64,000 bases of DNA, taken from NCBI GenBank assembly GCA_963675755.2, contig CAXXMD010000002.1, forward strand, positions 2,240,001 through 2,304,000. Direction: 5' to 3'. Within the stretch, counting starts at the first letter, position 1; every line of letters begins with the position of its first letter. The notes under the pieces were generated by a model, which searched no databases, was not told where the DNA came from, and saw nothing but the letters and a program-made list of their open reading frames with translations. The stretch is from a bacterium. GTDB lineage: Bacteria > Zhuqueibacterota > Zhuqueibacteria > Residuimicrobiales > Krinioviventaceae. The translations under genes and the position numbers were made by a program. Positions 1 through 24,364 of the stretch are shown one piece after another.

Positions 1-1787
1 TCTTCAGGAATAGTGTACAATTTAAAGTACCGAATTGCTTCACTTGATATATCACTTAATATTGATTGATGGTAAACACCTTCAAATTGTACATCAATAT
101 CTCCAACTAAAGAATCTCCACCAATTGTAAATAAAAATATCTCAACTATAACAAAATCCCTAAAACAATTTATTTTCAAAGAATCATTATTAATATTTGC
201 AAAACAATATTTAAACCTATTTCCCCCGTTTACGGAAAATCCCTGTGGTAATTCAACAGTTAAAGTATCTAATGGATTAATATTATCAGAAAATAAAAAA
301 TTACCATTAATAACTTTTTTTATTATTGATGATTCTTTAGAATATTTGATAACTAAATTATTTACAAAACGATTTTTCAAATCTTTAAATTGGTTCTCAA
401 CACTTATAACAAACTCTTTTATTTTATAATTAATATTTAAAACCCAAGTAGGATTATTGTTTTCAAAGCTTAGTTTATAACTTTGTGAAATAAAAAATGA
501 ATCTGCAAAAGTAATAGAGTAATTATTATTAGGAATTGATTCTCTAATACGTATACTATATTCTGAATCATTGGACATATTAATTCCCACAATTTCACAA
601 TTTTCACATGAAAGAAAATTAGCTAATTTATTATTTTGAAAATTAACTCCAGTAAAATTATTAATAACTACTTTTATCAATTTCTCTCTATATGTCTGAA
701 TTTTAACATTTTGTACTAAATTGGGTTCAACTTCGAGACGAAACACATCGTTGATATCCTCATAATTATTAGATTCAAGAGTGTAAAAAACATCTAAATT
801 CGGTGAGTAACGAAAACTTAAAACTATTTTCCCTTCTAAATCGCTTTTTAATAATTTAGAATTATAAGAAATTTCTAAATTAGAAATTGGATGATTCAAA
901 CCATCTGTAAAGAAAATAGTTTTTTTTAATTCCTTCCTTATTATACTTTTTCTTACTTTTTTATAGTCATCTAATTTTGTTAATGTTAATTTAGAATTTT
1001 CCCAGAAAATATCATTTTTAATATTGACATCAAAATCATCTTCATTCTTTAAATTTAGTATATAATAATAGTGTTTTGATTTATAAATTTCTACATTATT
1101 ATTTTTACTTTTCAATTCTGGAATTGTAATATTACAATTTATTTCATCAAATAGTTCTATACAATAAAATGGCTGATTTTTAAATGTTTCACATTTTTCA
1201 AATTCAAAATTTGATTTATTATTTAAGGTAGTATATATTGGTTTATAATTTTCCTTAAAAATAACAACCATATGATATTTTACCATTGATTCAAAACTTG
1301 CTCTTGTATCTATAGAAACGACTCCAGGTTTTTCTGATTGAAATTGCGTACCTTGGTATAGGTTAAAAACTCGAAAATCTTTAATTTTTTCTTTAGTTCG
1401 TTTTTCCAAAATTTTAAAATTAAAATTATATACATTTGCCCAAGGAGACATCACTAATGGTTGTAAATAAATATTAAGCTCATCATATACTGTTTTTAAA
1501 TCTAAATTCAAATCAATATATTTACCAACATAATTTTCTTTAAAAAAGAACACTTTTACAACATTATTTTTAAAATATTTTCTATCTAAACATATATTTA
1601 TTACACCATTCACATCAGTCCTAAAAGAAGATCCAACTTCTTCAAAAAAAATTTCAACACCTTCGATTCCTTCATTTGTTTTTTCATTAAAAACAATTCC
1701 CGAAAAAATTATTGATTTAGAATAAACAGAATTTATGCATAATAATAAAATAATTAGTATTTTTTTTATCATATTCCAATTCATCAT
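1..1787 (-). CDS. Secreted AT-rich hypothetical protein with N-terminal carboxypeptidase-regulatory-like (transthyretin-fold) domain; runs off the left window edge (partial)
   Basis: Not in the ORF track because no stop falls in the window. Manual translation gives MMNWNMIKKILIILLCINSVYSKSIIFSGIVFNEKTNEGIEGVEIFFEEVGSSFRTDVNG... The ATG at 1787 overlaps the upstream TGA (ATGA); alternative ATG at 1772. Frame open where spot-checked (1-60, 1020-1790). Confidence 0.7.
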   Translation of the reverse strand, partial: MMNWNMIKKILIILLLCINSVYSKSIIFSGIVFNEKTNEGIEGVEIFFEEVGSSFRTDVNGVINICLDRKYFKNNVVKVFFFKENYVGKYIDLNLDLKTVYDELNIYLQPLVMSPWANVYNFNFKILEKRTKEKIKDFRVFNLYQGTQFQSEKPGVVSIDTRASFESMVKYHMVVIFKENYKPIYTTLNNKSNFEFEKCETFKNQPFYCIELFDEINCNITIPELKSKNNNVEIYKSKHYYYILNLKNEDDFDVNIKNDIFWENSKLTLTKLDDYKKVRKSIIRKELKKTIFFTDGLNHPISNLEISYNSKLLKSDLEGKIVLSFRYSPNLDVFYTLESNNYEDINDVFRLEVEPNLVQNVKIQTYREKLIKVVINNFTGVNFQNNKLANFLSCENCEIVGINMSNDSEYSIRIRESIPNNNYSITFADSFFISQSYKLSFENNNPTWVLNINYKIKEFVISVENQFKDLKNRFVNNLVIKYSKESSIIKKVINGNFLFSDNINPLDTLTVELPQGFSVNGGNRFKYCFANINNDSLKINCFRDFVIVEIFLFTIGGDSLVGDIDVQFEGVYHQSILSDISSEAIRYFKLYTIPE

Positions 1788-3805
1788 TTTTTTAATTGAT
1801 AACAATCTCTCAATAGTTTGTATTTATTACATAAAAACTCAAAATATACAGGATCATCTTTTAAATTTGCATCAACTATTATCTCTTCAATTTTTTCACA
1901 ATTTTCATTCATTTTTCCTACTACATTTACTTGGAGAAATTGAATCATTATTAACGAAACTGAATTATCATAATCATCTCCATGTTTTAATACATAGCTA
2001 TAACTTTCATACGCATTATCATATTCACCTTTTAAACTATATAGATATCCTTCAATTATTTTTTGAAGAATGTCATTTGACACAAAAATGTCTTTATTTC
2101 TAAAAAATATATTTTTAGCAGAATCAATATGAGTATTATATATAATATTTAAATCTTGATACAAATTCATTTCATTTAATAAAGATTGAAATGAATAAAT
2201 ACAATCTCTTAGATAAGTGCAATATAGGAATCTTAAAAATATTTTAAATTGCATTTTAAAAATATCATCACAAAAAGTTGAATCTATTGCATTTACTTTA
2301 TTTAATACAGTTATAAATTTATTATCGAGTAACAAATTAATATCAATTGTATTTCCATCCTTTTGTAGTTCTTCCTGAAAATAATTTACTAATTCTTTAA
2401 CATCTTTTATTATCATGATCATTTCAGCTGATCGCTTTAATCCATTTTTAACAAATAAACTAATAGTATCTTTGGGGGATTCTTTAAAATGAGGCACATT
2501 AATTTCATTTTCATAACCATTATTATCTGCTAAAAAAGTTCTATATTCCTTATTTAAAATATCAAAAATTAAATTAGCGGTCTTATAACCAATTTCACAA
2601 TATATCAGCATATCCGCATTATATGATTCCTCATTATCTCTATAATCATCAATTGATGAAAAACTTTTATTATCAACAATTTTATCACTTCCTAAATATT
2701 CCCAGTCAATTTTTCTTTTTCCAACTATTTCTTTATCTAAAATACTATTTCTATTATCAGAAATAATTGAACTAATTTGACCACCTAACAAATTAAGTCT
2801 TTCATTTGTTTTTTTATCTTTTTTCTTATCTACATCAACTGGTCTCAAAAATAAAACTTTAACATTATTTGGGTTTTCGTACTTTTTGTTATCTAACAAT
2901 CTTTCATGCCATCTCTCAATACAAGTTAAGCATTCTTTTCGCGATTCTATATCTTTATCATCATAAGAAAAGTTGTTATATTCAATTATTTCATTATAAA
3001 TATTTTTAATGAATTGTTTATCTCGATTCCAATTGAATGATGTTGCTTTGTTTCCAAATTCAATTCGTTCTAAATTTAATGAACTCAATTGAGCATCAGC
3101 AATTAATTTTTTGTTTTGAACAAGAACTAAACCATTATAATACCCAATATTTCTTAATGAATCAGGAAAAGAAATATTAATAATTAAATCAAACCCATCT
3201 TTAACTAAAGAACTTGTATCTTGATTTGTTTTTATTATTTTTGTTTTTTTAATTTTATTATCAAACTCACCAAAATTATCATGAAATGAGGATGAATTAC
3301 TATTAAAATATTCATGTTCAATATTTAAAAGAACTAAATAATCATAATTATCAACAAATAAAATTATACATATTAAAATATTTGCTAATAATAATGTAAA
3401 ACTAAGAAAAGGAATTCTTAATGGTAAATTCGTATCAAAAACCATTTCCCAAAAAAAGATGAAAAACACCACAACAAGTAATAAATAAAACAATAATTCT
3501 TCAGAATCAATCTTATTTTTACTAATTATTATTATAATTAAAGAAATATAGAAAATTAAAAAACACCAAATCAAATAATGTTTTTCGTAAAAAACTAACT
3601 TTAATTTTTTATTTATTAAATAATTTAGCGGAACTTGCATTTTTTTTATAAAAAATGCTATACGGAAATGTAATAGTTCTATTAGAAATTTTATAAAATT
3701 ATCTGATTTTACAAAAAATAAAAAAACAAACAAAACTAATTGAAGAAGAACTAAATAAAAAGGTGTTTTTGAAGATAAAAATATACTTTTAAAAAATTCC
3801 TCCAT
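1784..3805 (-). CDS. Hypothetical membrane protein: N-terminal TM helices, C-terminal TPR-like helices
   Basis: 673-aa ORF; several hydrophobic segments in the first ~155 aa; GYLYSLKGEYDNAYESY is TPR-like. Confidence 0.65.
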   Translation of the reverse strand: MEEFFKSIFLSSKTPFYLVLLQLVLFVFLFFVKSDNFIKFLIELLHFRIAFFIKKMQVPLNYLINKKLKLVFYEKHYLIWCFLIFYISLIIIIISKNKIDSEELLFYLLLVVVFFIFFWEMVFDTNLPLRIPFLSFTLLLANILICIILFVDNYDYLVLLNIEHEYFNSNSSSFHDNFGEFDNKIKKTKIIKTNQDTSSLVKDGFDLIINISFPDSLRNIGYYNGLVLVQNKKLIADAQLSSLNLERIEFGNKATSFNWNRDKQFIKNIYNEIIEYNNFSYDDKDIESRKECLTCIERWHERLLDNKKYENPNNVKVLFLRPVDVDKKKDKKTNERLNLLGGQISSIISDNRNSILDKEIVGKRKIDWEYLGSDKIVDNKSFSSIDDYRDNEESYNADMLIYCEIGYKTANLIFDILNKEYRTFLADNNGYENEINVPHFKESPKDTISLFVKNGLKRSAEMIMIIKDVKELVNYFQEELQKDGNTIDINLLLDNKFITVLNKVNAIDSTFCDDIFKMQFKIFLRFLYCTYLRDCIYSFQSLLNEMNLYQDLNIIYNTHIDSAKNIFFRNKDIFVSNDILQKIIEGYLYSLKGEYDNAYESYSYVLKHGDDYDNSVSLIMIQFLQVNVVGKMNENCEKIEEIIVDANLKDDPVYFEFLCNKYKLLRDCYQLKK

Positions 3806-3996
3806 TATTAAACCCCAATATTTGTTTGATATTATTTTAACCCTAATTTTGCGGATTATAAATTAAACAAAAAAATATCAAAAGCAAATATTTAATACAT
3901 TTTCTGCACTTTTTTTCACAGATTTTTACGCAAATAGATAAAGTTTTGGATATTTATATTGATATTTGTTGCAGATTTTGCACAGATTGTTGACAA

Positions 3997-4905
3997 TCAG
4001 TCAAACATATGCCCCAGCAGCGTTTCCGCCACATCCACAATACTCTTGACCGGATTGCCGAATTTTTCTTGGCCCGGCCCAAATGCCAGTGTCATGGCAG
4101 GGTTGCGGGTGTGCCCCTTGAATGATAGATCTTCAATATTACCGTGATCACTGGTAAGCAGTACCAGGGTTTCGTCCAGGTCAACGGTTTCCAGAATGGC
4201 CCCAAGAAACGCTTCCAGTTTAACGATCTCGTTTCTGGCGCGCTCCATTTCTTTGCTGTGACCGGCAAAGTCGGTTTGAAAATACTCAAACAACGCCAGA
4301 TCATACGCCCGGCTCTGCTTCCCGATTATCTCCCCCGCCTTTTGCGGCGATACCACCGGTGCGTCAAATCCTTTTTCGCGCAGAGCGTCTCCGCTCATAT
4401 CCTGATACACACTGCGCTCCGCCCAGATATCCTCAATGCCGAAAAATTGTTGTCCCGCAAAATAGTTCATACACGATGTTACAGAGAGATGCCGGATAAT
4501 CTCGTCCGGTTCAAAATCAAAAAATGGCGGACGGAAAGCGTTCAAAAACGCGACCTTTTTCCCCTTGTCCACCAGTTTTTTGAAAATGGAGTGTTCTTTA
4601 ATCACCTCGCGTAGTTGCGCGTTGGGACGGTGATTGAGATGCCTCCCCAGCAGCTTGCTGGCATTAACGCCGGTAAACAGCGATGTCTGCCCGGTTGCGC
4701 TCTGCGGCAGCAGGGGCATATCCAGATTGGCATCCAGTCCCAGTGCAATGCCGTCATGCGGCAGGGATTTGGGATACTGTTGATCAAGCGTATTGTTGAA
4801 AAACCGCCACTGCTGGTCCGCACAGGGATTGATCTCGGGATCGTTTTCGCCAATACCAATACCATCAACAAACAGAAAAAGAATATGTTTTGGAGAGTTT
4901 AACAT
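3997..4905 (-). CDS. Metalloenzyme, alkaline phosphatase / cofactor-independent phosphoglycerate mutase superfamily
   Basis: Motifs FVDGIG, PQSATGQT, TDFAGH, TSDHGN, HTRNP. Confidence 0.85.
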   Translation of the reverse strand: MLNSPKHILFLFVDGIGIGENDPEINPCADQQWRFFNNTLDQQYPKSLPHDGIALGLDANLDMPLLPQSATGQTSLFTGVNASKLLGRHLNHRPNAQLREVIKEHSIFKKLVDKGKKVAFLNAFRPPFFDFEPDEIIRHLSVTSCMNYFAGQQFFGIEDIWAERSVYQDMSGDALREKGFDAPVVSPQKAGEIIGKQSRAYDLALFEYFQTDFAGHSKEMERARNEIVKLEAFLGAILETVDLDETLVLLTSDHGNIEDLSFKGHTRNPAMTLAFGPGQEKFGNPVKSIVDVAETLLGHMFD

Positions 4906-11942: not shown

Positions 11943-11968
11943 AAAAAAAAGGCGCTTAAAAAGCGCCT
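11943..11968 (-). terminator. Rho-independent terminator after PTS EIIB
   Basis: AGGCGCTT/AAGCGCCT stem plus T tract on the minus strand. Confidence 0.75.
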
Positions 11969-12456
11969 CATTCTTTTTCCAATTCGAGAGAATCAGCTAT
12001 ATCGATAGGTGGACGTGTGGGTACGTCCCTGCCTTCAAGATAGATTTTCTTTTTGTATAAAATACTAAAATTTTCAATATCATTTTGATCGACAAAAATA
12101 AATGGGGTGATCTGGTTTTTGCCTGGTTTGAAATGCATTCCACCCACATTCACTTCTTTGATATCCACACCGGCATTTACCAGATCTACAATTGTTTTAG
12201 GTGAATCAACCAGCATTAAAACACGTTCTTGCACAAATTCATTTGCGTTCAAAGCATTAATGGTTTCTTCAAGCGTTAAAACAGATGCAGCTATTTCCGG
12301 GGGAACTGCAGACAAGTAAATTTTCCGCTGCCAATCGGAATTTGCGACTTCATCGCTGCACAATAAAATCCGTTGCGGTTTCAAAACATCTCTCCAGCCA
12401 ACAACGACCTGGCCGTGAATCAGTCGGTCATCAATTCTTACCTGTACCAGTGGCAT
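11968..12456 (-). CDS. PTS mannose/sorbose-family EIIB
   Basis: RIDDRLIHGQV phospho-His motif; NVGGM. Confidence 0.93.
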   Translation of the reverse strand: MPLVQVRIDDRLIHGQVVVGWRDVLKPQRILLCSDEVANSDWQRKIYLSAVPPEIAASVLTLEETINALNANEFVQERVLMLVDSPKTIVDLVNAGVDIKEVNVGGMHFKPGKNQITPFIFVDQNDIENFSILYKKKIYLEGRDVPTRPPIDIADSLELEKE

Positions 12457-12490
12457 TACTTACTCTCCATATTCTGTTTATTTTTCATTA

Positions 12491-12877
12491 TTATTTCAAT
12501 GTTGTTATACCGCGCAATCCATCATTTATTATCTCTTCTACCAATTCATCCAGAGAATAAGTTTCTCGTTTAGTAACAAAAGACAATATCATGGGTAAAT
12601 TTACGCCGGAAACAACCCGAACATTCTGATAATTCATTGCAATACCTGCTGAAACATTCCAGGTACTGCCACCTTTAAGGCAAGCCATTATAACCAGTCC
12701 ATCCTGCTGTTCGTGTGGTGCCTTGACAATTGCCAACAGTCGGTGATTAATTTCTTCCAATGTCATATCGGTCACTGAAAGCGCGTGCAAGCCTTCGTCC
12801 ATTCCAATAATATTACGGACCGCTTCTATCAAAGCACTGCCCATGGGTCCGTGTGTAATTAATGCTGCATGTTTCAT
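12491..12877 (-). CDS. PTS mannose-family EIIA
   Basis: LITHG phospho-His; GGST; VSGVNLPM. Confidence 0.88.
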   Translation of the reverse strand: MKHAALITHGPMGSALIEAVRNIIGMDEGLHALSVTDMTLEEINHRLLAIVKAPHEQQDGLVIMACLKGGSTWNVSAGIAMNYQNVRVVSGVNLPMILSFVTKRETYSLDELVEEIINDGLRGITTLK

Positions 12878-12885
12878 AATTTATT

Positions 12886-13863
12886 CTAACTCCGGTTTTG
12901 GTTCTGCATCTTTTGGATCAATCGTTCATTAAATTCCTTGGCCGGATGCTCGCCATGTTGCTTGAGTTGGTGATTCATTGCAACAACTTCTGCAATTACC
13001 GTAATATTCTTACCCGGAAAGATAGGAAGCTCAACAAGAGGCAGTTCAACATCAAGAATTTTTACGGTCTTGTCTTCTACTCCTGAACGTTCGTATTCGC
13101 GGTTTTCATCCCACAATTCCAGTTTAATTACCACATCAATATTTTTATTGCCGCGAATCCCTCTAATTCCAAACATTCTGCGTACATCGATAATACCCAA
13201 GCCACGTATTTCCATATGGTGGGTCAATATTTCACTTGGGGCGCCCTGTAATACATTTGTAGCCATTTTGGTTATGTAAACAGCATCGTCTGCCACAAGC
13301 TGGTGCCCGCGTTCAATCAGGTCGAGCGTTAACTCGCTCTTTCCAATAGCACTGGGACCGGTTATCAGCATACCTACACCATATACATCGATCAAAGATC
13401 CATGCACCAATATATATGGGGCAAATGTGCGATTAAGATATTCACTGAGATAATACGTAACAGTAGTTGTACTAAGGGGGGTTGAAAAGATGGTTATGGC
13501 ATTATTATTGGCAATTTCTACAAGTTCATCCGGTATTCGGTTATCGTTGGTAACAATAATACATGGCAGGTCAAATCCCAAAACTGTAGATATGGCGTGC
13601 ATTCTGGCTTCTCCGTGCAGGGTATTCAAATACCCTATTTCCGTATTCCCCATAATCTGGAGGCGCCAATATGTAAAAACCTCAACAAAGCCGCTTAGGG
13701 CCAAACCCGGTCTGTGTAGTTCCTGCTCTTTAATTTTTCGAATAAAGCTGGCTTCGTTATTTATGATTGACAATGATAATTTTTCAGAATTATCAAGGTA
13801 CAACTCTTCAACTGTAATAAAAGGCCTGACTTTGGGTTCACTATCAAGAATGGAATCAATCAA
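12886..13863 (-). CDS. hprK: HPr kinase/phosphorylase
   Basis: RPGLALSG, HGSLIDVYG, GKSE, RGHQLVADD, MEIRGLGII. Confidence 0.95.
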   Translation of the reverse strand: MIDSILDSEPKVRPFITVEELYLDNSEKLSLSIINNEASFIRKIKEQELHRPGLALSGFVEVFTYWRLQIMGNTEIGYLNTLHGEARMHAISTVLGFDLPCIIVTNDNRIPDELVEIANNNAITIFSTPLSTTTVTYYLSEYLNRTFAPYILVHGSLIDVYGVGMLITGPSAIGKSELTLDLIERGHQLVADDAVYITKMATNVLQGAPSEILTHHMEIRGLGIIDVRRMFGIRGIRGNKNIDVVIKLELWDENREYERSGVEDKTVKILDVELPLVELPIFPGKNITVIAEVVAMNHQLKQHGEHPAKEFNERLIQKMQNQNRS

Positions 13864-13902
13864 CGCTTGTACATCTCCATTTAAAATGTGCTTTATTCAG
13901 CC

Positions 13903-13944
13903 GGGCGAAAACGCCCCTGGCAAAGACCCTGGTCTTTGCCAGGG
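13903..13944 (-). terminator. Strong hairpin between hpf and hprK (terminator or mRNA-stabilising stem)
   Basis: 14-bp inverted repeat CCCTGGCAAAGACC/GGTCTTTGCCAGGG, overlapped by a smaller GGGCG-AAAA-CGCCC stem; weak U tract. Confidence 0.5.
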
Positions 13945-13949
13945 TATCA

Positions 13950-14270
13950 TTATTCTTCAAACTTTTCTACAATTTTTTCTTTGTCAAAATGTCTGATTTT
14001 TTCTTTATATTTTACTATATTCCGTTCTAGGGTATCCACCGCCAGTGTTATGGATTTATACATATCCTCGCTGCGGGTCACAACAGGTATACGGGTACCG
14101 TACACCTTGGCAATTATTTCAGCAACTTGCTCCTGCTTAATATAATCCAAAATTATTTCTACATCAAGTATTCCGTCATAATACTTTTTCAATCTGGTAA
14201 CTTCTTCGGTAGCGAATTCTTTTAATCGGTCCGATGGCTTAAAATGCCTGGCAGTGAAAGAAACTCTCAT
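13950..14270 (-). CDS. hpf: Ribosome hibernation promoting factor (HPF/RaiA, short form)
   Basis: FTARHFKPSDRLKEF...SEDMYKSITLAVDTLERNIVKYKEK. Confidence 0.9.
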   Translation of the reverse strand: MRVSFTARHFKPSDRLKEFATEEVTRLKKYYDGILDVEIILDYIKQEQVAEIIAKVYGTRIPVVTRSEDMYKSITLAVDTLERNIVKYKEKIRHFDKEKIVEKFEE

Positions 14271-14345: not shown

Positions 14346-15281
14346 TTATTTTTCATTAGCCCTGGGATGGGCCTGTTTATAAATGCGTTTCAAATGTTCG
14401 GCTGATACATGTGTGTAAATTTCTGTGGTTCCCAAATTTGAATGGCCCAATAATTCTTTAACAGACATTAAATCGGCTCCGGAATCCAACAAATGAGTTG
14501 CAAATGTATGCCGCAATGAATGCGGATGCGCTTTTTCTGTATCTGCTACTTTTTTAATATAATTTTGAACAATTGTTGCGACTTGCTGTCTGGTAAAAGG
14601 CTCCTTTTTTTCTTTAACAAATAAATAGCGGTTATATTCCTGTTTTACAGAGTCTTGCACTTCTATTTGCTGCAAATACCGGCGTATATCCTCAATTACG
14701 ATACCGGGCAGGGGTAAAACTCTTTTTTTATTACCTTTACCTAATACGGTGAGTGTGCCGCTATTCAGGTTCACATCACTTGTTTTAATATTGATCAACT
14801 CACTTACGCGGATACCTGTTGCATAAAACAATTCCAGAATTAAATAATCCCGTAATCCTTCAAAAGTCTCTACATCCGGTAAACTCAATAACGCCTTTAC
14901 TTCTGATTTTGTCATAAAAGACGGCAATTTTTTATCCAGCTTGGGAGAAGCAATATTTGCAACAGGATTCGCCTCAAGCACACCCTTTCTTACCAAATAC
15001 CGGGCAAACATCCGTAACGCGGAAAGTTTTCTACCGGTACTGCGAGCCGAATATTTTTCTTTCAACAGTTCAGACAAAAAACCCCGCACTATAGCTTTTG
15101 TAAAATGTTCAGTTGCAAAAAGTTCGTCTGTAGAATAACGGTCTTTTAAAAAGCTGACATAATGATTTAAATCACGTCCATATGCTGCTATAGTATTTGC
15201 AGAACTGCGTCGTTCAACTTGCAAATGATGTAAAAATTGAGGAATCCAGTTTTCTAATTTTTGTTTTTCCATCGTCATCAC
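14346..15281 (-). CDS. xerC: Tyrosine recombinase XerC
   Basis: YATGIRVSEL, GKGNK, HPHSLRHTFATHLL, LLGH, TEIYTHV; canonical topA-xerC-hpf synteny. Confidence 0.88.
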   Translation of the reverse strand: MMTMEKQKLENWIPQFLHHLQVERRSSANTIAAYGRDLNHYVSFLKDRYSTDELFATEHFTKAIVRGFLSELLKEKYSARSTGRKLSALRMFARYLVRKGVLEANPVANIASPKLDKKLPSFMTKSEVKALLSLPDVETFEGLRDYLILELFYATGIRVSELINIKTSDVNLNSGTLTVLGKGNKKRVLPLPGIVIEDIRRYLQQIEVQDSVKQEYNRYLFVKEKKEPFTRQQVATIVQNYIKKVADTEKAHPHSLRHTFATHLLDSGADLMSVKELLGHSNLGTTEIYTHVSAEHLKRIYKQAHPRANEK

Positions 15282-17455
15282 TTTTCGCTGATCACCGAAA
15301 TAAACTGGTTATCGTACAGATGATTACATTTAGGGCATTGATAGCCTTTGTGGCCCTCTGTCAAATCGTGTTCGACAAGATACCGGTTTCCGCAATTACG
15401 GCATAACATATTTACCGGTTTTTTCCACGCGGCAAAAGAACAATCAGGATACCTGCTGCATCCAAAAAACAATCGTCCTTTTGATTGTCTCTCTACTATT
15501 TTGCCGTCACATCCTTCAACAGGGCAAAAGATGTTGAGTGTGTAGGCTTTGGTAAAATCACATTTGGGATACCGGGTGCAAGCCAGAAACCTTCCATATT
15601 GTCCCTCTCTGACTGTTAGCGGTGCTCCACAAATCTCGCAAATTTCTTTTTCTTCTCTCTCATCAGCCTTATATATATATACGCAGCTTGCCGGGTAATG
15701 TTCACAAATTATTTTATTATCGTCACCGTGTATCAACTTGCCTCCGCACAACGGACAGACACTTTTTCCATCTGCGCCAGATGTTACAGGAGCTTGAACA
15801 GATCCGCCATGTTCAAAAAGTTTGCTGTAACTGTTAATAAACACCTCAACTTTTTGTTTACCAGACGCCACAGTTCGGATCGAATTATCCAGCTGCAAAA
15901 CTATACCTGTATTGATATAGCCTGAATACTTTAATAACAAGGCATTTATGGCATAAAATCCCTTTGCTGAAGGATAAAGTCCGGATCTCTTTCTTTCCAG
16001 CATTTGAATTGCAAAAAGCATGCCCGAATGATATAAATATTCGTAAATAGAACCTGCCCCGGATGCAAGCCACAAATGCAGCATTTCCGATTCAGTATAA
16101 CGGTTTGATATTTCGGACTGATGGGTTTGAATATCAAAATCCACAACCTCAAGTGTTTTACCGGTGTTCCAGGTATCCGGAATTTTCACATCTTCCTGAG
16201 CTTTTGATTTTTCGGAAAGAACCTGTCGAAATCCCCGAAACAGATCTGTTTCATATTCATACTCGCAAATACAAGGATCTTTTTTGTCATCGATTACAGT
16301 TATAGTCCTTGTTTCTGAAACAGATTTGGTCATTTGCGATGCAATATAACGGTGCCAAATCATTGAATAAATTTCGTATTGCGGTTCGGTCAGGTGTTTT
16401 TTGAGCTTGCGTGGAGTCAATCGCAAATCGAGTGGGCGAATAGCCTCCCCTTCCGGATGATGTTTGTTTTGCTTGTAAGCGCGTTGCGGCAGGTAATCTG
16501 TTCCATAATTGTTATAAATATATTCCCTCAACTCTGCAATACTTTCAGGTTTAACATAATCAGAAACAGAGAGAAAGTACGATATCAAACTTATGGGTTC
16601 GTCTCCACCAAGTCTTATACCTTTATACAACACTTGAAGAATTTTAATAACTTTTGACACAGAGTATTTGATCTGGGCATCTGCCAAAAGAGACTGCGTT
16701 GTATAGGGCTTGGGAGGCTGTGTTTGGGTTTGCCGGGTTTGGATGTTTTGAATTTTAAACTCACCATCTTTGATCTGAGAGACCATGGCTTTTGCGAGTT
16801 GAATGTTTCTTACATCCTGTTCTTCTTTTCCAATCTTGATAAGACTAAATTCTAAATTCTTTTTCCCCCTGACTTTGAAACGAATAGATATTTCAAAATG
16901 TCGGTGTGTCTTTTCGCTTTCAACCTCAGTTTCTTTTTCATATAAAAAGCGTAAAAGCAGTGCCTGTTTAATGTGGGTAATTTCTTTAATTCCCTCAACC
17001 GCTTTTAATTTAGAAAATTCATTCTGCAATAAACGGTTTGCCCAATAATCTGCGCATTCCGCATAAAACAAATCAGGGGTAACAGCCTTAATTTTTTTTA
17101 ATTCATTATTCAGATATAGGGCGGTATTCTGATGCATCTTTACTCTGACGATCTTTTTATAACTACCGTCAAACAATAATGCAAGCAATCCCGTTAAAAA
17201 ATCACTATCATCTCCGGGATCTACAACCAGAACAATTGTATGAAAAGGTTTAGCAAAATCTAAAAGAGGTGTGAATATATCCAACGCCGAATCGAGCAAT
17301 CTTACAGATTGGTTCGAAAAATCGACATTCTGTTTTATGAATTCATTACGATCTAATTTTTTCAAGAGCTTGTAATCCCGAAAAACCGTAAATCCATTCA
17401 TTGTAAACAGATCGTAACGGTTTTTAGAATCAACAACAACAAGCTTTTTTTGCAT
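15278..17455 (-). CDS. DNA topoisomerase I (type IA)-like protein with degenerate catalytic motifs and intact C-terminal zinc ribbons
   Basis: PPKPYTT, EAIRP, IWHRYIASQM, RYTE and C4 ribbons are recognisable, but ITYMRTDS reads ISYFLSVS, DPDREGE reads DPGDDSD, and GIGRPSTY reads GAGSIYEY. Confidence 0.85.
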   Translation of the reverse strand: MQKKLVVVDSKNRYDLFTMNGFTVFRDYKLLKKLDRNEFIKQNVDFSNQSVRLLDSALDIFTPLLDFAKPFHTIVLVVDPGDDSDFLTGLLALLFDGSYKKIVRVKMHQNTALYLNNELKKIKAVTPDLFYAECADYWANRLLQNEFSKLKAVEGIKEITHIKQALLLRFLYEKETEVESEKTHRHFEISIRFKVRGKKNLEFSLIKIGKEEQDVRNIQLAKAMVSQIKDGEFKIQNIQTRQTQTQPPKPYTTQSLLADAQIKYSVSKVIKILQVLYKGIRLGGDEPISLISYFLSVSDYVKPESIAELREYIYNNYGTDYLPQRAYKQNKHHPEGEAIRPLDLRLTPRKLKKHLTEPQYEIYSMIWHRYIASQMTKSVSETRTITVIDDKKDPCICEYEYETDLFRGFRQVLSEKSKAQEDVKIPDTWNTGKTLEVVDFDIQTHQSEISNRYTESEMLHLWLASGAGSIYEYLYHSGMLFAIQMLERKRSGLYPSAKGFYAINALLLKYSGYINTGIVLQLDNSIRTVASGKQKVEVFINSYSKLFEHGGSVQAPVTSGADGKSVCPLCGGKLIHGDDNKIICEHYPASCVYIYKADEREEKEICEICGAPLTVREGQYGRFLACTRYPKCDFTKAYTLNIFCPVEGCDGKIVERQSKGRLFFGCSRYPDCSFAAWKKPVNMLCRNCGNRYLVEHDLTEGHKGYQCPKCNHLYDNQFISVISEK

Positions 17456-17493: not shown

Positions 17494-17961
17494 TCAGTGT
17501 GGCAGCATGTTGGAATTAAACTGGAAATAACCATCAGAAGCACTGTTTTCAAAATCCAATACTACCGCGGCAATCAAGTCCTGCATTTCTCTTACATCAA
17601 TACTTGCAAGCTGCAAGCTTACTGCACGCTCTATGATCTGCTCCATCATATCGTCAGTAACCAGTTCCAGTTCACGCAATTGAAACAGGTACCCATATGC
17701 CTCGGGAGAGATGATCTCTTTTTCAATTTCATTCAACTCTCTCCAGATTGCCCGGGGAACATCCGAAGGGTGCCCTTGTATGATCCGGTCTATACTTTCC
17801 CCATGGTTCAATAACCATGACATGGCCGTAGAGATCTCTTCATCACTAAAGCCCTGTTCCGATAATATATCTAAAATCAATTGTAAATCTATTTCTCCAA
17901 AAGCGTTGTCACGAATCTCTTTCATCACAAAACTCAGGATATCCAAAAACCTTTTGTTCAT
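17494..17961 (-). CDS. smg: Smg/DUF494 family protein
   Basis: GFSDEEISTAMSWL, ISPEAYGYLFQL; directly upstream of the topA-like gene. Confidence 0.85.
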   Translation of the reverse strand: MNKRFLDILSFVMKEIRDNAFGEIDLQLILDILSEQGFSDEEISTAMSWLLNHGESIDRIIQGHPSDVPRAIWRELNEIEKEIISPEAYGYLFQLRELELVTDDMMEQIIERAVSLQLASIDVREMQDLIAAVVLDFENSASDGYFQFNSNMLPH

Positions 17962-18133: not shown

Positions 18134-21100
18134 TTAATTGCCTTTACCACAGCAATTTTTATATTTTTTCCCACTTCCACAGGGACAAGGCTCATTTCTA
18201 CCAACTTTATTGGTATTAATCACCTGACGCTGCTTACCCGCCGGACGTCCCGGTGTGGGTTGGGCCTGTGCTTTACCCTTGGGTGGAGCCATTACCTGTT
18301 TAAACAACTCTACCTGAGAATGAGATGTAGATACCTTTTGCGGTTCGGCACGTCTCATTTCCCGTTCTTCAAGCTCACCACCAACATCCAGTACGCGGAA
18401 AAGAGTGCTTACAATATCTCTGTTTGTACTGTCAATCATTTTTACAAACATTTTGTAAGCTTCGCTCTTGTACTCAATCAATGGATCTTTTTGGCCATAA
18501 CCGCGCAATCCAATACCTTCACGCAGTTCATCAACACCACTCAAATGCTGACGCCAGTTCTCATCAATTTTTTCAAGTATATAATACCGCTCGTATCTGG
18601 CTACCATAGATTCGCCAATCTCATCTACACGGCGTCGGTAAATACTTTGTGCCCAACTACTCAGAATATTCATCACCGTATTGGGATCCATTGCCTCACC
18701 ACTTTCATCGTGCAGGCGTGGCGATTGTCTGAATACCAGACGGCATTCCGATTCCAAACGACGAATCTGGGTAGCATCAAGATCATCATTATTACCCAGC
18801 ACACCGCTGATCATCTGATAGATTGTATCATCGATCATGGTTAAAACAGAATCAAAAACAATATCTGTACTGAGCCGTTCCTGATGGTAACGCTCAACCC
18901 GGTCTGCATAGGTTTTATAGAAACTCAAACCCCATGCAACCAGTTCTTCTCGATACGAGTTTAATGTTTCACGTTCACGAGATGCCGGCAGAATCTTGTC
19001 CGGTTTTCCCATAAACATATTCTGAAAACTTGATGCCAGTAGCTGTTGTGTTGATTCGGCATCTTTGTTTTCTTTGATAACATTTTCAAACCTTGCAATA
19101 ATAGAAGATTCTATCAATTCTTCAATGGATGTATTGGCAAGTAACAATTGGTTATATACGGAAATATTTTCTCGTAAATGCTCCAAATAGGTATTTCTTG
19201 CCCATCGCATTGTCTGGTTAACAAGATCAGGCCAGTCTTTCAAGGCTTCAGCAGGTTCAAATGCTTTACCAAATACACCCTGCAAAAACTCTGCCTGTTT
19301 TCCTTCCAGTTCTAAAACATCCCGGCTGTGGTAAGCAGATGCCTGAATAAAACTGTGTTCAACTATTGCATTAATATATTGTACAGATGAAAAATAGCCC
19401 AGAATACGGTTACGATACAACATTTCATCCTTGGCGGTAATTGCCAGACCGTCAAGCCATTCCTGAACTTTTTCAATTACTTTTTCTCGTCGAATGGTAC
19501 GCATCTCATTTTCACCAATGGGCGGACGCTGCATAAATATCTTTTCAAGATCACTTAAAAAGTTCTCTGAATTCCAGGTTGCCGCTGGCGCATCAATTGG
19601 TAAATGACGATTAACCAAACCATTTACATAAATTTCCAGAAAAGTGTTCAACGGAATGGTTTTAAAAAGAATAAGGTCTATTGCTTTTTGCCCGTTTTCT
19701 ACCTGAGAATTATAAACAGATGCAGCCCATTCTTTCAATTTTGATTCAAAAGCATCAGCAGTATCAATATTGCTATTCTCAAGCCAATCTGGTTTTTGCT
19801 CAAAAATACGCTCCATTTCATAACCAATGCCTTCAATATTCCATTTTGAAATATCTCGGGTACCAGCGTTATGCAGTCTTATTTTCAACAATACCAGCTC
19901 ATCTATAATATCTTGAATATTACAATACCCGGTAATACGGTGACGTTCCTGCATTTGATAGAGGTGGCGCTGTTCTTTCAACTTTTCATCAACCCAGGTT
20001 CTCAAAGTCTCCCGAACACCACTAACATCCTGGCTTTCAAGTTCAGATTTGGTAAAATCAGGTTCTGCACCAAAATACCGTTTCAGATTTTCAAACAATT
20101 CATCCAGTTTCCAGGTTGAACGATCATCTTCTTCATCAATAAAGCGTTTGATCTTGGCTTCTACAAAATCTTCCGGCTGTGCAAAACCCAGCAGGTTTTG
20201 TCGTCGTTTATATATAATCTTTCTTTGTTCATTCAATACGTCATCATAATCCAGCAAATGCTTACGGATTTCAAAGTTGCGTTCTTCAACTTTTTTCTGA
20301 GCGCGTTCAATGGATTTTGTGATCATAGAGTGCTCAATGCGCTCTCCCTCATCCATACTGCCTAAACGACTCATAATATTTGTAATGCGGTCAGAACCAA
20401 ACAGACGCATGAGATCATCTTCCAATGACAGATAAAAACGTGAAGAACCCGGGTCTCCCTGACGTCCTGCACGACCACGTAACTGCCGGTCAATTCGACG
20501 GGCTTCGTGTTTTTCTGAACCAATGATCTGCAAACCACCTTTTTCAATCACATCTCTGGTAAGCTTGATATCCGTACCACGACCCGCCATATTGGTCGCA
20601 ATAGTTATAGATCCCGGTAGACCCGCTTTGGCAACAATTTCAGCTTCGTTTTTATGATACTTGGCATTCAATACCGTATGAAAGCGTCCCGATTCCAGCT
20701 CTTTAGTAACATCACCCTTTTTCAGCCAGTTGGCAACAGGAATACCGCGCTGGGTAAACAAATTACTCAGATGCTGAGAAACATCAACTGAAACCGTACC
20801 AATCAGAACCGGTAGTCCTTTTTCATGATACTCTATGGTATCTTTAATGATTGCATCATACTTTTCAGCCTTTGTTCGATAGATCACATCATTCATATCA
20901 TCACGAATAACCGGTCTATTGGTTGGTGCAACAATAACATCCAGCTTATAAGTGCTGTAAAATTCCTGCGCTTCGGTTTCGGCGGTACCGGTCATACCTG
21001 CCAGCTTATTATATAATCTAAAGAAATTCTGCAAAGTAATGGTAGCCAGTGTCTGACTTTCGGCCTGTACTTCAACACCTTCTTTGGCTTCCAACGCTTC

Positions 21101-24100
21101 GTGCAATCCGTCACTGAAACGGCGTCCCGGCATTAAACGACCGGTAAACTGGTCAACAATCATAACCGCTTTATTTCCACGTTTTGCACCGGTACGTCTT
21201 AATTCATTATCTTCCACAGCCTTGACCACATATTCAACATCGTTATGATAAAGGGTATATGCACGCAGCAACTGGGATATATTTTGAACGCGTTCTTCCA
21301 CGCGGTTATAATCCTGCCAGATCTTGTCACGCTGCTGTTCCAGCATTACACGTGGACGTCTCTCAAAATGGATGCGGAACCAGTGTTCAATCTCTTCATT
21401 ACGCATAACAAAATTCGGCATATGGGCATTAGACAGCAATTCTGTCATCTCGCGATCATCCAAAACAACATGGCGTGAACGCAAATGCGCTTTTTCTTTA
21501 GGAAGCAGTCCCTGAAGCTCTGCCCGACTGCCGGCTTTTTTAGTGCTCAACTGCATAATCTCATCGCGAAAACTCTGATACTCATCCCGGTAATTGAAAT
21601 AAGGCAATCCGCCAATCAACAATGTACGGGCGGCTTTTTCAATACCCTTGGGCATTTTGTTTTCATCCAAAACAAATAGAGCATCAATATCTACATTCGG
21701 GTCACTGGCAGCTTCTTTTAATTTATCCACAACCTGACTACGTTCAAAAAACAGTCCTTGTAGATTCTTGCGGCCGTTTTCGGTTAATCCTGAAATATTA
21801 ACAGTCGTCAATACCGGGTCTTCGGGATGCAGGGTACCACTAAACTGGAAATACCTGCGAAGCCAGCGTTGACGTTCTGTAAGGGTTTGATCCGTATCTG
21901 CCAGGTTTGTAAAGATCATCTGTATTGTATTATTGAGGCGTTCTACCTCTTCAAACCGACGAGAAGCACTGATTATCTCTGCGGGCAAGTTGAATTTTTC
22001 CTGTAGATGTGCATCCAGCTTTAACTTGTTTGACAGTTCATTTTTACCGGTGTCACGGCTCCAGGATTTAATTTCTTTATCTACATCGGCAAAGCTCGCG
22101 CCCATCAGGCGTTCCAATTCAGCGTCTGCTAATCCGGATACACGTCCATCCGCGTCAGTTTTAAAAATAGCCTCAGGTTTATCTTTATAATCACCCAGGT
22201 TTTTTTCAAAATGTCGTATTACGGCTTTACTTTCACTGCTGAAATTAGAAAGACATTCAACACCCAAAGCGGTAATGTCAAACCTGCTGGTTTCCATAAC
22301 ATAAAAATCATTGTTTGCAGGGTCTTCAAGTGTTTGAATATGTTCATACAGTGATGTTACATCTTTATCCATATCTTCTACAGCAAGAACATGAGCAGAA
22401 TAATCATAATCTGCCTGGTTTAGGGTATCATCCAACTGTTTTTGGATCTGCTGGTCACGTTCTTCAACCAGGGTTCTGTCAGGCAGTACATACAGATCAG
22501 GATTACCGCCAAGCAGAGCAATACGGCCTTTTTCTGTTATCTGATTTAAAACAGCACCATTGTCTTTAAACTCGAAATATTCCTGTTTAATGTTTTCAAT
22601 AGTGGTCACATCCTGTGTTGTTGCTGGATTTAAAAGTGCAATCAATCCATTAACAGTAGGCAGTAGCATAGGATCACCAGATTTTTGCATTGCCAATACC
22701 GCCAGCTTGCCTTCTTCCGTCAAACCGGTGATTGCGCCAAACTGTTTTTCTGTTTCAAAAAAAACATCGGTCAATTCTCTTCTTCTGTCAACAAGCGGAC
22801 GTTTCATAACCGGCTCAGCATCTACGTCTGCTTCTTCACGTACCATATCTAAAAGCTTTACAAAGGCGTCTACAATGGATTCGTCATACTTTCCGTTTGC
22901 ATTTGATTTCAGATAATCAATACCTGCCGGGGCCATACTATTCACAGCCCGATCCATCTTTTTTGTCATATCGTAAAATTGACGCCAGGCAGAGGCCTTG
23001 TCGCCTTTATTGTTTTGCAAACGTGTATTAACTTCTTCAGGCAAATCGTTCAATTGAAGAGCAAGCTGTTCAATGGGTTCAAACTCAGACTCGGCAACTC
23101 CGGATTGTATACCAATAAGGGCAGCTTTACCCGCAAGGGTCAGGCCATTACAGGTGCCTGTAATGGAATCATGTGTAAAATAGATGGAGCGGTTCTTTTG
23201 CTCACTGAGCTTTTCAAGCGTTGCGCTCAATTCATCCAGCTTTTGAATTTTATGTACAATATCCTGATCACGACCACCCGAGAGGAATATACGTCCCTTT
23301 TCGGTAATGTCTATAACATGGCTTTTTTCGTCAATGGTAAAATACAAATCGGCATCAATTTCACCCATTTGCTTATTAACTTCATATTGGCCCTGAATTC
23401 GCTCAATCAATTTCTTGACCCAGAATTCCGAAGTCAACAGTTCAAGCAGTTCCTTGTTTTTAGGATCTCCACGATGTACCTGAAGGATCTTGATACCTGC
23501 CTGCTCTTCTTCATTCTCGAGCAATTCTTTGCCTTCCCGCAACAGTTGCTGTACCAGTTCGTTTTGTCGTTTTGCCAGGTTCTCTACAGTGGGTTTTAAT
23601 TCTTTGTAAATATTCTTGGGTGCGCCAACAGCTCCCGAGATAATAAGCGGGGTTCTGGCTTCATCAATTAAAACACTGTCCACCTCATCCACAATTGCGT
23701 AATGTAATGGACGCTGAACAACAGACCAGACATCCTGAGCCATATTATCACGCAAATAATCAAAACCAAACTCGTTGTTGGTACCATACGTAATATCGGC
23801 ATGATATGCCGCGCGGCGTTCTTCAGGAGATTGATCTCCAAAAATTGCGGCTACGGTTAATCCCAAAAATTTGTAAATCTCGCCCATCCATTCACAGTCA
23901 CGTTGGGCCAGATAATCATTAACAGTGATAAGATGCACACCCTTGCCTTCTAACGCATTCAGATACAAAGGCATAGAGGCTACAAGGGTTTTACCTTCAC
24001 CCGTTGCCATTTCTGCTATTTTTCCTGAATGCAGAATCATACCACCCAATATCTGCACGTCATAAGGGATCATGTCCCATTCTATCTCCTGCCCTCGTAC

Positions 24101-24364
24101 AATCCATTTTTTACCACGCAGCCGTCTACATGTATCCTTGACAACAGCAAAGGCCTCGGGCAAAATATCATCAAGAGTTTCCCCCATACGTAATCTATAT
24201 TTAAATTCGTTGGTTTTCGCTTTTAACTCATCATCAGACAAATGCTCATATTCTTTAGCATATTCATTCACCGTACCAACTAGTGGTTCTAGCCGTTTAA
24301 CTTCACGTTCGGTGCTTGTGCCTCCCATAACCTTGGAAAGCATTTTTTCAATAGACTTTAACAT
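18134..24364 (-). CDS. secA: Preprotein translocase ATPase SecA, giant form (2076 aa) with repeat-expanded PPXD and helical wing
   Basis: [126 protein letters not shown]. Confidence 0.97.

Follow-up and report, generated by a model that had tools for sequence, protein, structure and literature searches.

What keeps a gene for a DNA topoisomerase I homologue open over its whole length when most of the conserved and catalytic residues of the enzyme have been replaced? This question is raised by a stretch of 64,000 nucleotides of bacterial DNA (positions 2,240,001 to 2,304,000 of contig CAXXMD010000002.1, assembly GCA_963675755.2; hereafter the window, to the whole of which all positions refer), in which an open reading frame (ORF) for a homologue of the type IA topoisomerase TopA with 725 amino acids (aa) lies between smg and a xerC-type recombinase gene. 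A first-pass annotation had described this gene as encoding a catalytically dead toroidal scaffold retained for a new role, with relaxation supplied by a paralogue, and this description is largely supported by the present analysis. We consider it probable that the gene (hereafter eroded topA) is the native topA of its lineage, which was displaced by a TopA of the Escherichia coli type, lost its active site and has been kept as a dead pseudoenzyme for a non-catalytic job.

Pseudoenzymes are catalytically dead paralogues that are retained for binding or regulatory roles. Type IA topoisomerases have, to our knowledge, been treated as uniformly catalytic and essential, and in the parts of the literature that were searched no description of a pseudoenzyme or a catalytically degenerate form of this type was found. 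A clade of full-length eroded TopA proteins under selection would indicate that this fold can be retained for purposes besides strand passage. It would also provide a natural experiment in the xenologous displacement of an essential enzyme, in which an E. coli-type TopA was acquired and the native gene was then eroded, truncated or lost.

Active site of the smg-linked TopA homologue

No internal stop codon interrupts the ORF and both neighbouring genes were recognized by Pfam, which confirms the observation of an uninterrupted TopA homologue at this place. In the 725-aa protein, Pfam detected Topoisom_bac (136.5 bits, residues 164–540) and Zn_ribbon_Top1; the same scan gave no match to Toprim. 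On TIGR01051, the NCBIfam equivalog model of TopA, the protein scored 191.6 bits and remained below the cut-off of 456.4. Its closest solved relative by sequence is the TopA of Streptococcus mutans (E 2.1e-35). At the Pfam level the protein would be called 'DNA topoisomerase I' despite the failed equivalog cut-off and the lost catalytic set, which is a warning for annotation.

Alignment to the canonical TopA of the same genome recovered all six motif substitutions that had been listed in the first-pass annotation: VESPAK is replaced by VDSKNR, DLDREGE by DPGDDSD, SAGRVQ by ITHIKQ, TYMRTDS by SYFLSVS, HEAIRPT by GEAIRPL, and GIGRPSTY by GAGSIYEY. For scoring, 14 sites were used that are strictly conserved or catalytic according to the parts of a review considered here (PMC7587558), in the numbering of E. 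coli K-12 TopA. All 14 are present in each of the seven canonical control rows, i.e. E. coli TopA, the second TopA of the window's genome and five smg-linked TopAs. Three sites are retained in the window protein (D111, Q197 and Y319), while the others are changed (E9 to D, K13 to R, D113 to G, E115 to D, R168 to D, D172 to N, G194 to H, R195 to I, R321 to L, H365 to G and R507 to I).

The Toprim Glu and DxD motif, which bind Mg2+ (PMC7587558), have become Asp and DxG (D111-x-D113 to D-x-G). Tyr293, which corresponds to the catalytic Tyr319 in E. coli TopA, is present; the strictly conserved Arg321 is replaced by Leu295, so that the reported loss of the adjacent catalytic Arg stands in the alignment to the K-12 enzyme as well, and Gly is found in place of His365. 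Among the G-strand residues R168, D172, G194, R195, Q197 and R507, Q197 alone survives; R168, D172, R195, Q197 and R507 are described as holding this strand (PMC7587558). According to the same source, Arg321 stabilizes the nucleophile and the transition state, no compensation for its loss is possible in religation, and an enzyme cleaving without it would fail to religate and be toxic (PMC7587558). The joint loss of the G-strand contacts and Arg321 makes sense for this reason. Judged from these replacements, the window protein would have lost its catalytic activity.

Predicted fold and zinc ribbons

The proposed toroidal scaffold agrees with the predicted structure. An AlphaFold2 model based on a 24-row alignment reached a predicted local distance difference test score (pLDDT) of 84.7 and a predicted template modelling score of 0.79. 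Domain D1 (residues 1–150) was predicted as a beta-alpha fold with block pLDDT values of 83–92. A Foldseek search matched the model to full-length E. coli TopA (E 2.8e-39) and yielded target-normalized template modelling (TM) scores of 0.80–0.83 over about 560 columns for the N-terminal fragments 1cy0, 1cy8 and 6ozw, which are the E. coli 67-kDa and the S. mutans N-terminal fragments. In the predicted structure, the four-domain toroid D1–D4 and the zinc ribbons are thus retained.

The retention of the C-terminal C4 zinc ribbons was also borne out. Four ribbons are present; the 12 Cys residues of ribbons 2–4 are invariant in all 24 aligned eroded relatives, and the CxxC motif of ribbon 1 was found in 20 of these. 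Invariant columns of the core across the eroded family are few and structural-looking, and no substitute catalytic residue conserved across the family was found in its alignment. Complex prediction for Smg and eroded TopA gave a score of 0.00 in two runs carried out without controls and speaks neither for nor against binding.

Selection on the eroded gene

Non-synonymous and synonymous rates (dN, dS) and their ratio omega were determined by the Nei-Gojobori method between the window's own genome (G000) and a sister species (G001), with 88% amino-acid identity. For the whole eroded topA, omega is 0.11 (dN 0.063, dS 0.57). Analysis by domain, which had been suggested as a check in the first-pass annotation, gave 0.10 for the N-terminus (residues 1–160), 0.094 for the core (residues 161–550) and 0.18 for the zinc ribbons. 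The corresponding values are 0.033 (dN 0.020) for canonical TopA, 0.06 (dS 0.23) for smg and 0.074 (dS 0.43) for xerC, and the non-synonymous rate of eroded topA is about three times that of canonical TopA. Eroded topA is under purifying selection and far from neutral in every domain. A young pseudogene, for which frame-breaking decay in relatives had been named as the sign, was rejected by the omega of 0.11 together with intact frames family-wide; truncation and loss of the gene do occur in some relatives and are considered below. The three features by which a pseudoenzyme is operationally recognized, a kept fold, lost catalytic residues and purifying selection, are all found in the window protein.

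In the same comparison, dS of eroded topA drops from about 0.8–1.3 in codons 150–450 to 0.12–0.29 in codons 450–725, the part with low dS being located at 15278–16100 of the window. This drop is possibly caused by recombination or by constraint at the nucleotide level near the xerC start. With dS of smg and xerC varying as well, recombination is no more than a possible reading.

A second, canonical TopA in the same genome

The window's genome has exactly two PF01131 matches, the eroded gene and a canonical TopA, so that the search for a second intact topA was successful. This protein of 878 aa (match at G000:C2:2385215-2387080) is encoded about 81 kb past the window end, scores 793.6 bits on TIGR01051 and has canonical residues in all motifs. 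It carries an E. coli-type C-terminus, with PF01396, PF21372 and PF08272, whereas smg-linked TopAs labelled Caldithrix and Ignavibacteriae consist of Toprim, Topoisom_bac and PF01396 ribbons only. Its best named relatives are proteins labelled 'candidate division KSB1 bacterium' (63–69% identity) and Pseudomonas TopA (64–65%), further matches being one labelled E. coli (54%) and one with an Actinobacteria label from a metagenome-assembled genome (MAG; 72%). Identity to the window protein is only about 24% over residues 164–534.

The distribution was analyzed in 121 genomes of the phylum, 27 of them from the window's order and 94 from elsewhere, and in 14 control genomes. Within the order, PF08272 was detected in 24 of 27 genomes, one of which is G000; it was detected in none of the 94 others, and among the controls only in E. 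coli. For genomes outside the order, most of the best matches to TIGR01051 fall in open frames of about 730–790 aa, and a few in frames beyond this range. At all 10 loci fetched from these genomes, TopA is located directly upstream of xerC with TYMRTD intact, and smg was detected upstream in six. In addition, MAGs labelled Bacteroidota, Caldithrix, Ignavibacteriae and Gemmatimonadetes carry smg-topA-xerC with a canonical enzyme. Since a canonical TopA occupies the xerC-adjacent locus outside the order, the window gene is, by position, orthologous to native topA.

In phylogenetic trees, the clade of E. coli-type TopAs received 100% support in the Shimodaira-Hasegawa-like approximate likelihood ratio test, and the sequences of the order stand beside the gammaproteobacterial ones. 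In the tree including the native TopAs of the phylum, all 15 eroded rows are placed on one side of a branch with 98% support. Its point of attachment is at the phylum's native TopAs, and several starred branches separate it from the clade of E. coli-type enzymes. In a larger tree, P0042 is found next to the main eroded group and P0051 and P0090 elsewhere among canonical TopAs. The second TopA was probably acquired by horizontal transfer in the ancestor of the order. Of the earlier statement that relaxation is supplied by a paralogue, the existence of a second TopA therefore holds and its status as a simple paralogue does not, as it is an E. coli/Pseudomonas-type enzyme that is restricted to this order and was probably transferred. 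An origin of the eroded gene as in-genome duplicate of the active TopA was rejected on the basis of the different C-terminal architecture, the separate clades and the positional orthology to native topA.

One genome of the order, G030 (f4 g20), has a canonical TopA of 779 aa (G030:C15:27036-28901) without a PF08272 match, while its smg-linked gene is eroded with a weak Toprim match remaining. This may reflect a different history within the order.

The eroded family

A homology search by word index returned P0002 (88%) as the only close relative, the remaining matches being mostly canonical TopAs; the eroded family became visible only with an exhaustive HMMER search. This search gave 6310 matches at E<=0.001, the best 149 of which were tabulated for motifs as representative clusters; among these 149, most have the six motifs unchanged and about 30 clusters are eroded. 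A scan of genome contigs with the eroded-family alignment, following the zinc-ribbon pattern, found canonical TopAs only (80/80) and no new eroded members. As these 80 TopAs of other genomes, without exception, and most of the 149 clusters hold the six motifs essentially unchanged, the erosion pattern seen in the alignments cannot be chance.

smg was found in 37 of 41 genomes searched within the order, G000 included. At all 12 loci examined in relatives, an intact orthologue lies between smg and xerC, with 695–746 aa from the chosen start and stop-to-stop frames of 705–760. These orthologues share 26–35% identity with the window protein (88% in G001), and at the same loci Smg is 51–97% and XerC 48–94% identical. 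After removal of rows with at least 95% identity, 31 distinct full-length eroded proteins remained, each of which has 2–8 of the 14 conserved sites. None of the 31 has kept R321 or H365, two each have kept E115, R195 and R507, and Y319 is kept in 15. Tyr at position 319 or 320 is present in 22 of the proteins and absent from nine.

Two proteins outside the main eroded clade, P0051 and P0090, are partly eroded and TopA-like, with the Tyr kept and His at the Arg321 position; in the tree, P0051 pairs with the TopA of Bryobacterales. This suggests independent erosions in other phyla.

Probable displacement of the native enzyme and alternative explanations

The explanation that we regard as probable would comprise the following steps. 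The window gene would be the original topoisomerase I gene of the lineage, and its position between smg and xerC would be the ancestral one. The ancestor of the order would have gained the E. coli/Pseudomonas-type TopA, by which relaxation would now be carried out. Freed from catalysis, the native protein could then have lost residues of three kinds, namely the metal ligands of Toprim, the Arg and His assisting the Tyr nucleophile, and those by which the cleaved strand is held, while the toroidal fold and the four C-terminal zinc ribbons would have been kept under selection. The non-catalytic job would be binding of single-stranded DNA (ssDNA) via the zinc ribbons, possibly also of RNA polymerase, with the toroid as scaffold. 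By analogy, ssDNA binding is the most likely role, because binding of ssDNA and RNA polymerase has been described for the C-terminal domains of TopA and for E. coli YrdD. Retention for a new role, as stated in the first-pass annotation, is in this sense a conclusion drawn from the comparison and not an observed function.

Several results weigh against this explanation. Tyr293 persists in the window protein together with acidic residues (E9>D, D111, E115>D), so residual or altered chemistry may be possible and 'dead' is a judgement from sequence. In the order, 20 further smg loci were fetched for which an earlier scan had given no clear full-length form. Three of them have long eroded forms of 671–744 aa, six have N-terminally truncated forms of 479–572 aa that lack the Toprim/D1 region (Pfam scans of four, alignment table for all six), and at 11 smg directly abuts xerC without a remnant. 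An upstream remnant in G039 carries two in-frame TGA codons. The native topA of the order is thus full-length, N-terminally truncated or deleted, and because it is truncated or lost there, the eroded gene is dispensable in some lineages. This corresponds in part to the frame-breaking decay that the first-pass annotation had named as a refutation, yet in the window's lineage the gene is maintained under selection. In two of the 27 genomes of the order, G005 (96% complete) and G015 (90%), no canonical TopA was found; if this gap is real and not due to assembly, the eroded protein would be their sole TopA. Genus-mates of G005 do have a canonical TopA. Furthermore, the trees were quick IQ-TREE runs on core columns with very long eroded branches, the placement of which could be distorted, and the direction in which the E. 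coli-type TopA was transferred is something that we only infer.

A functionless relic that is slowly being lost, and whose frame has stayed open by chance or because of polar effects on xerC, would account for the deletions and truncations, the stops in G039, the threefold higher dN compared to canonical TopA and the 4-base overlap with xerC. We nevertheless regard it as unlikely, since omega is far from neutrality overall and in each domain (0.09–0.18), frames of about 700–760 codons are open in at least 12 lineages at 26–35% identity, and the 12 Cys of ribbons 2–4 are invariant in 24 of 24 relatives. Coupling to xerC would not constrain amino acids along the whole gene.

The protein could also act as a non-catalytic partner or regulator, i.e. 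as a scaffold for recombination by XerC, as a partner of Smg or, at RNA polymerase, as a modulator of the E. coli-type TopA or its competitor. The gene order secA-smg-topA-xerC is conserved phylum-wide with operon-like spacing, and the C-terminal domains of E. coli TopA are described as binding ssDNA and interacting with RNA polymerase (PMC4678816). However, at the 11 loci that lack the eroded gene, smg and xerC are still present side by side, so that neither of them depends on it, and such a role seems improbable to us.

A topoisomerase or nuclease that is still active through a re-wired catalytic site, using Tyr293 (or, in relatives, the Tyr next to it) together with acidic residues at new positions and perhaps acting on RNA or a special DNA substrate, would fit the kept Tyr293 and acidic residues, the Tyr at 319 or 320 in 22 of 31 relatives, the purifying selection on the whole toroid and the reports that cleavage by Arg321 mutants carrying an aromatic residue is still possible given Mg2+ and that Mycobacterium smegmatis TopA cleaves RNA without need of the Toprim Glu (PMC7587558), but it is very unlikely in view of the complete absence of Arg321 and His365 from the 31 proteins, the nine that have no Tyr at either position, the near-absence of R195 and R507 (2/31 each), the lack of a conserved substitute residue and the toxicity of cleavage without religation (PMC7587558).

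Comparison with known systems

The native smg-linked TopAs of about 750 aa, found in MAGs labelled Calditrichota, Bacteroidota and Ignavibacteriota, resemble the window protein in locus, gene order, D1–D4 with PF01396 ribbons and predicted fold. In contrast to them, the window protein is below the equivalog cut-off, gives no Toprim match, retains 3 of the 14 sites and has lost Arg321 and His365. The E. coli/Pseudomonas-type TopAs (865–878 aa) share the homologous N-terminal core and are represented in the same genome by the presumed active enzyme, relative to which dN of the window protein is about threefold. They differ in the C-terminal domain with PF21372 and PF08272, in their separate, strongly supported clade and in their locus. 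With pseudoenzymes in general, the window protein has in common that the fold is kept, catalytic residues are lost, selection is purifying and an active counterpart is present in the same cell.

A further comparison concerns E. coli YrdD, a 'putative DNA topoisomerase' of 180 aa. In E. coli K-12 the gene order is smf(dprA)-smg-yrdD and the E. coli-type topA is located elsewhere in the genome. YrdD has four 4-Cys ribbons like the window protein, is encoded directly downstream of smg, and likewise coexists with a separate E. coli-type TopA encoded elsewhere. Unlike the window protein with its 725 aa and D1–D4 under selection, it has no toroid and consists of stand-alone ribbons. The ribbons of both proteins are colinear (residues 567–709 of the window protein; 88.6 bits, 34% identity, E 6e-25). 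YrdD matches the smg-linked TopA of Caldithrix with 117 bits (39%), the E. coli-type TopA of G000 with 58 bits (27%) and E. coli's own TopA with 42.7 bits (28%). The native four-ribbon type of TopA is thus a far better match than E. coli TopA, which suggests where the unexplained YrdD comes from. In the sources considered, YrdD is described as a protein with four 4-Cys ribbons and Zn-dependent ssDNA binding (PMC4678816), which is repressed by relaxation (PMC545778) and induced by hypernegative supercoiling (PMC8301835). By sequence comparison, YrdD looks like an end state of the same displacement-and-reduction path.

More tentatively, and with less confidence than we have in the displacement itself, it is possible that smg-linked TopA has a second, non-catalytic function in its zinc ribbons and, in some lineages, in the closed toroid, which would sit on single-stranded or underwound DNA as a passive clamp or sensor. 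This function would survive a takeover of relaxation by another enzyme, the order would keep the complete reduction series from the full-length dead toroid through the N-truncated form to loss, and YrdD would be the gammaproteobacterial end point. If this were true, YrdD and Smg would gain a testable origin and role.

Short proteins related to the ribbons are mostly fragments at contig ends. One of them, P0304, is a YrdD-like stand-alone protein of 185 aa with PF01396 ribbons only, located on a 1-Mb contig and 39% identical to the ribbon region of the window protein.

The locus and its neighbours

The features of the locus are listed in Table 1. The gap between smg and the start of eroded topA is 38 bases, and in the junction sequence the GTG start of xerC overlaps the eroded topA stop by 4 bases. 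The Smg protein of the window has weak similarity to E. coli Smg.

Table 1. Positions of eroded topA, its parts and its neighbouring genes in the window
Feature	Position	Strand	Basis
Eroded native topA (putative pseudo-TopA), type IA topoisomerase homologue, 725 aa	15278..17455	-	ORF, Pfam, TIGR01051, alignment
D1 with Toprim-like predicted fold and degenerate metal-binding motifs (E9>D, DxD>DxG), residues 1–150	17006..17455	-	alignment, predicted fold
Topoisom_bac core D2–D4 with eroded active site and G-strand groove, residues 164–540	15836..16966	-	Pfam, alignment, Foldseek
Tyr293, equivalent of catalytic Tyr319 of E. coli TopA, kept	16577..16579	-	alignment
Leu295 at the strictly conserved Arg321 position	16571..16573	-	alignment
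Four C4 zinc ribbons, best-conserved part, colinear with E. coli YrdD, residues 567–710	15326..15757	-	Cys positions
smg (DUF494), upstream neighbour	17494..17961	-	Pfam DUF494
secA, 2076 aa, upstream of smg	18134..24364	-	ORF, Pfam
xerC-type tyrosine recombinase gene, downstream	14346..15281	-	Pfam Phage_integrase and SAM_1

dprA, the absence of which had been pointed out in the first-pass annotation, does not adjoin topA and is located on another contig. The significance given to this absence did not hold, because the order secA-smg-topA-xerC without dprA is found across the phylum; its absence is thus unrelated to the erosion, and unlinking of dprA as a part of it was rejected. dprA stands next to the locus only in three loci, all from other phyla, and a dprA-smg-topA operon has been described for Neisseria (PMC5817196).

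The SecA protein of the window is a giant of about twice the usual size. Pfam assigned SecA_DEAD (residues 15–406), PP_bind (1021–1092), a P-loop domain (1151–1270), Wing/Scaffold (1836–1991) and SEC-C (2056–2074), leaving stretches of about 600 aa and about 560 aa without assignment.

Downstream of xerC, further minus-strand ORFs (11968–14270) were given putative names by eye from their translations. They resemble a ribosome hibernation factor (13950–14270), an HPr kinase (12886–13863) and two small mannose-type EIIA/EIIB proteins of the phosphotransferase system (PTS; 12491–12877 and 11968–12456). At positions 1–4000 of the window the GC content is 21–23%, compared to about 40% in the remaining window. 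This region contains two long ORFs on the minus strand, at 3..1805 (601 aa, open-ended) and at 1784..3805 (673 aa), and may be a foreign island.

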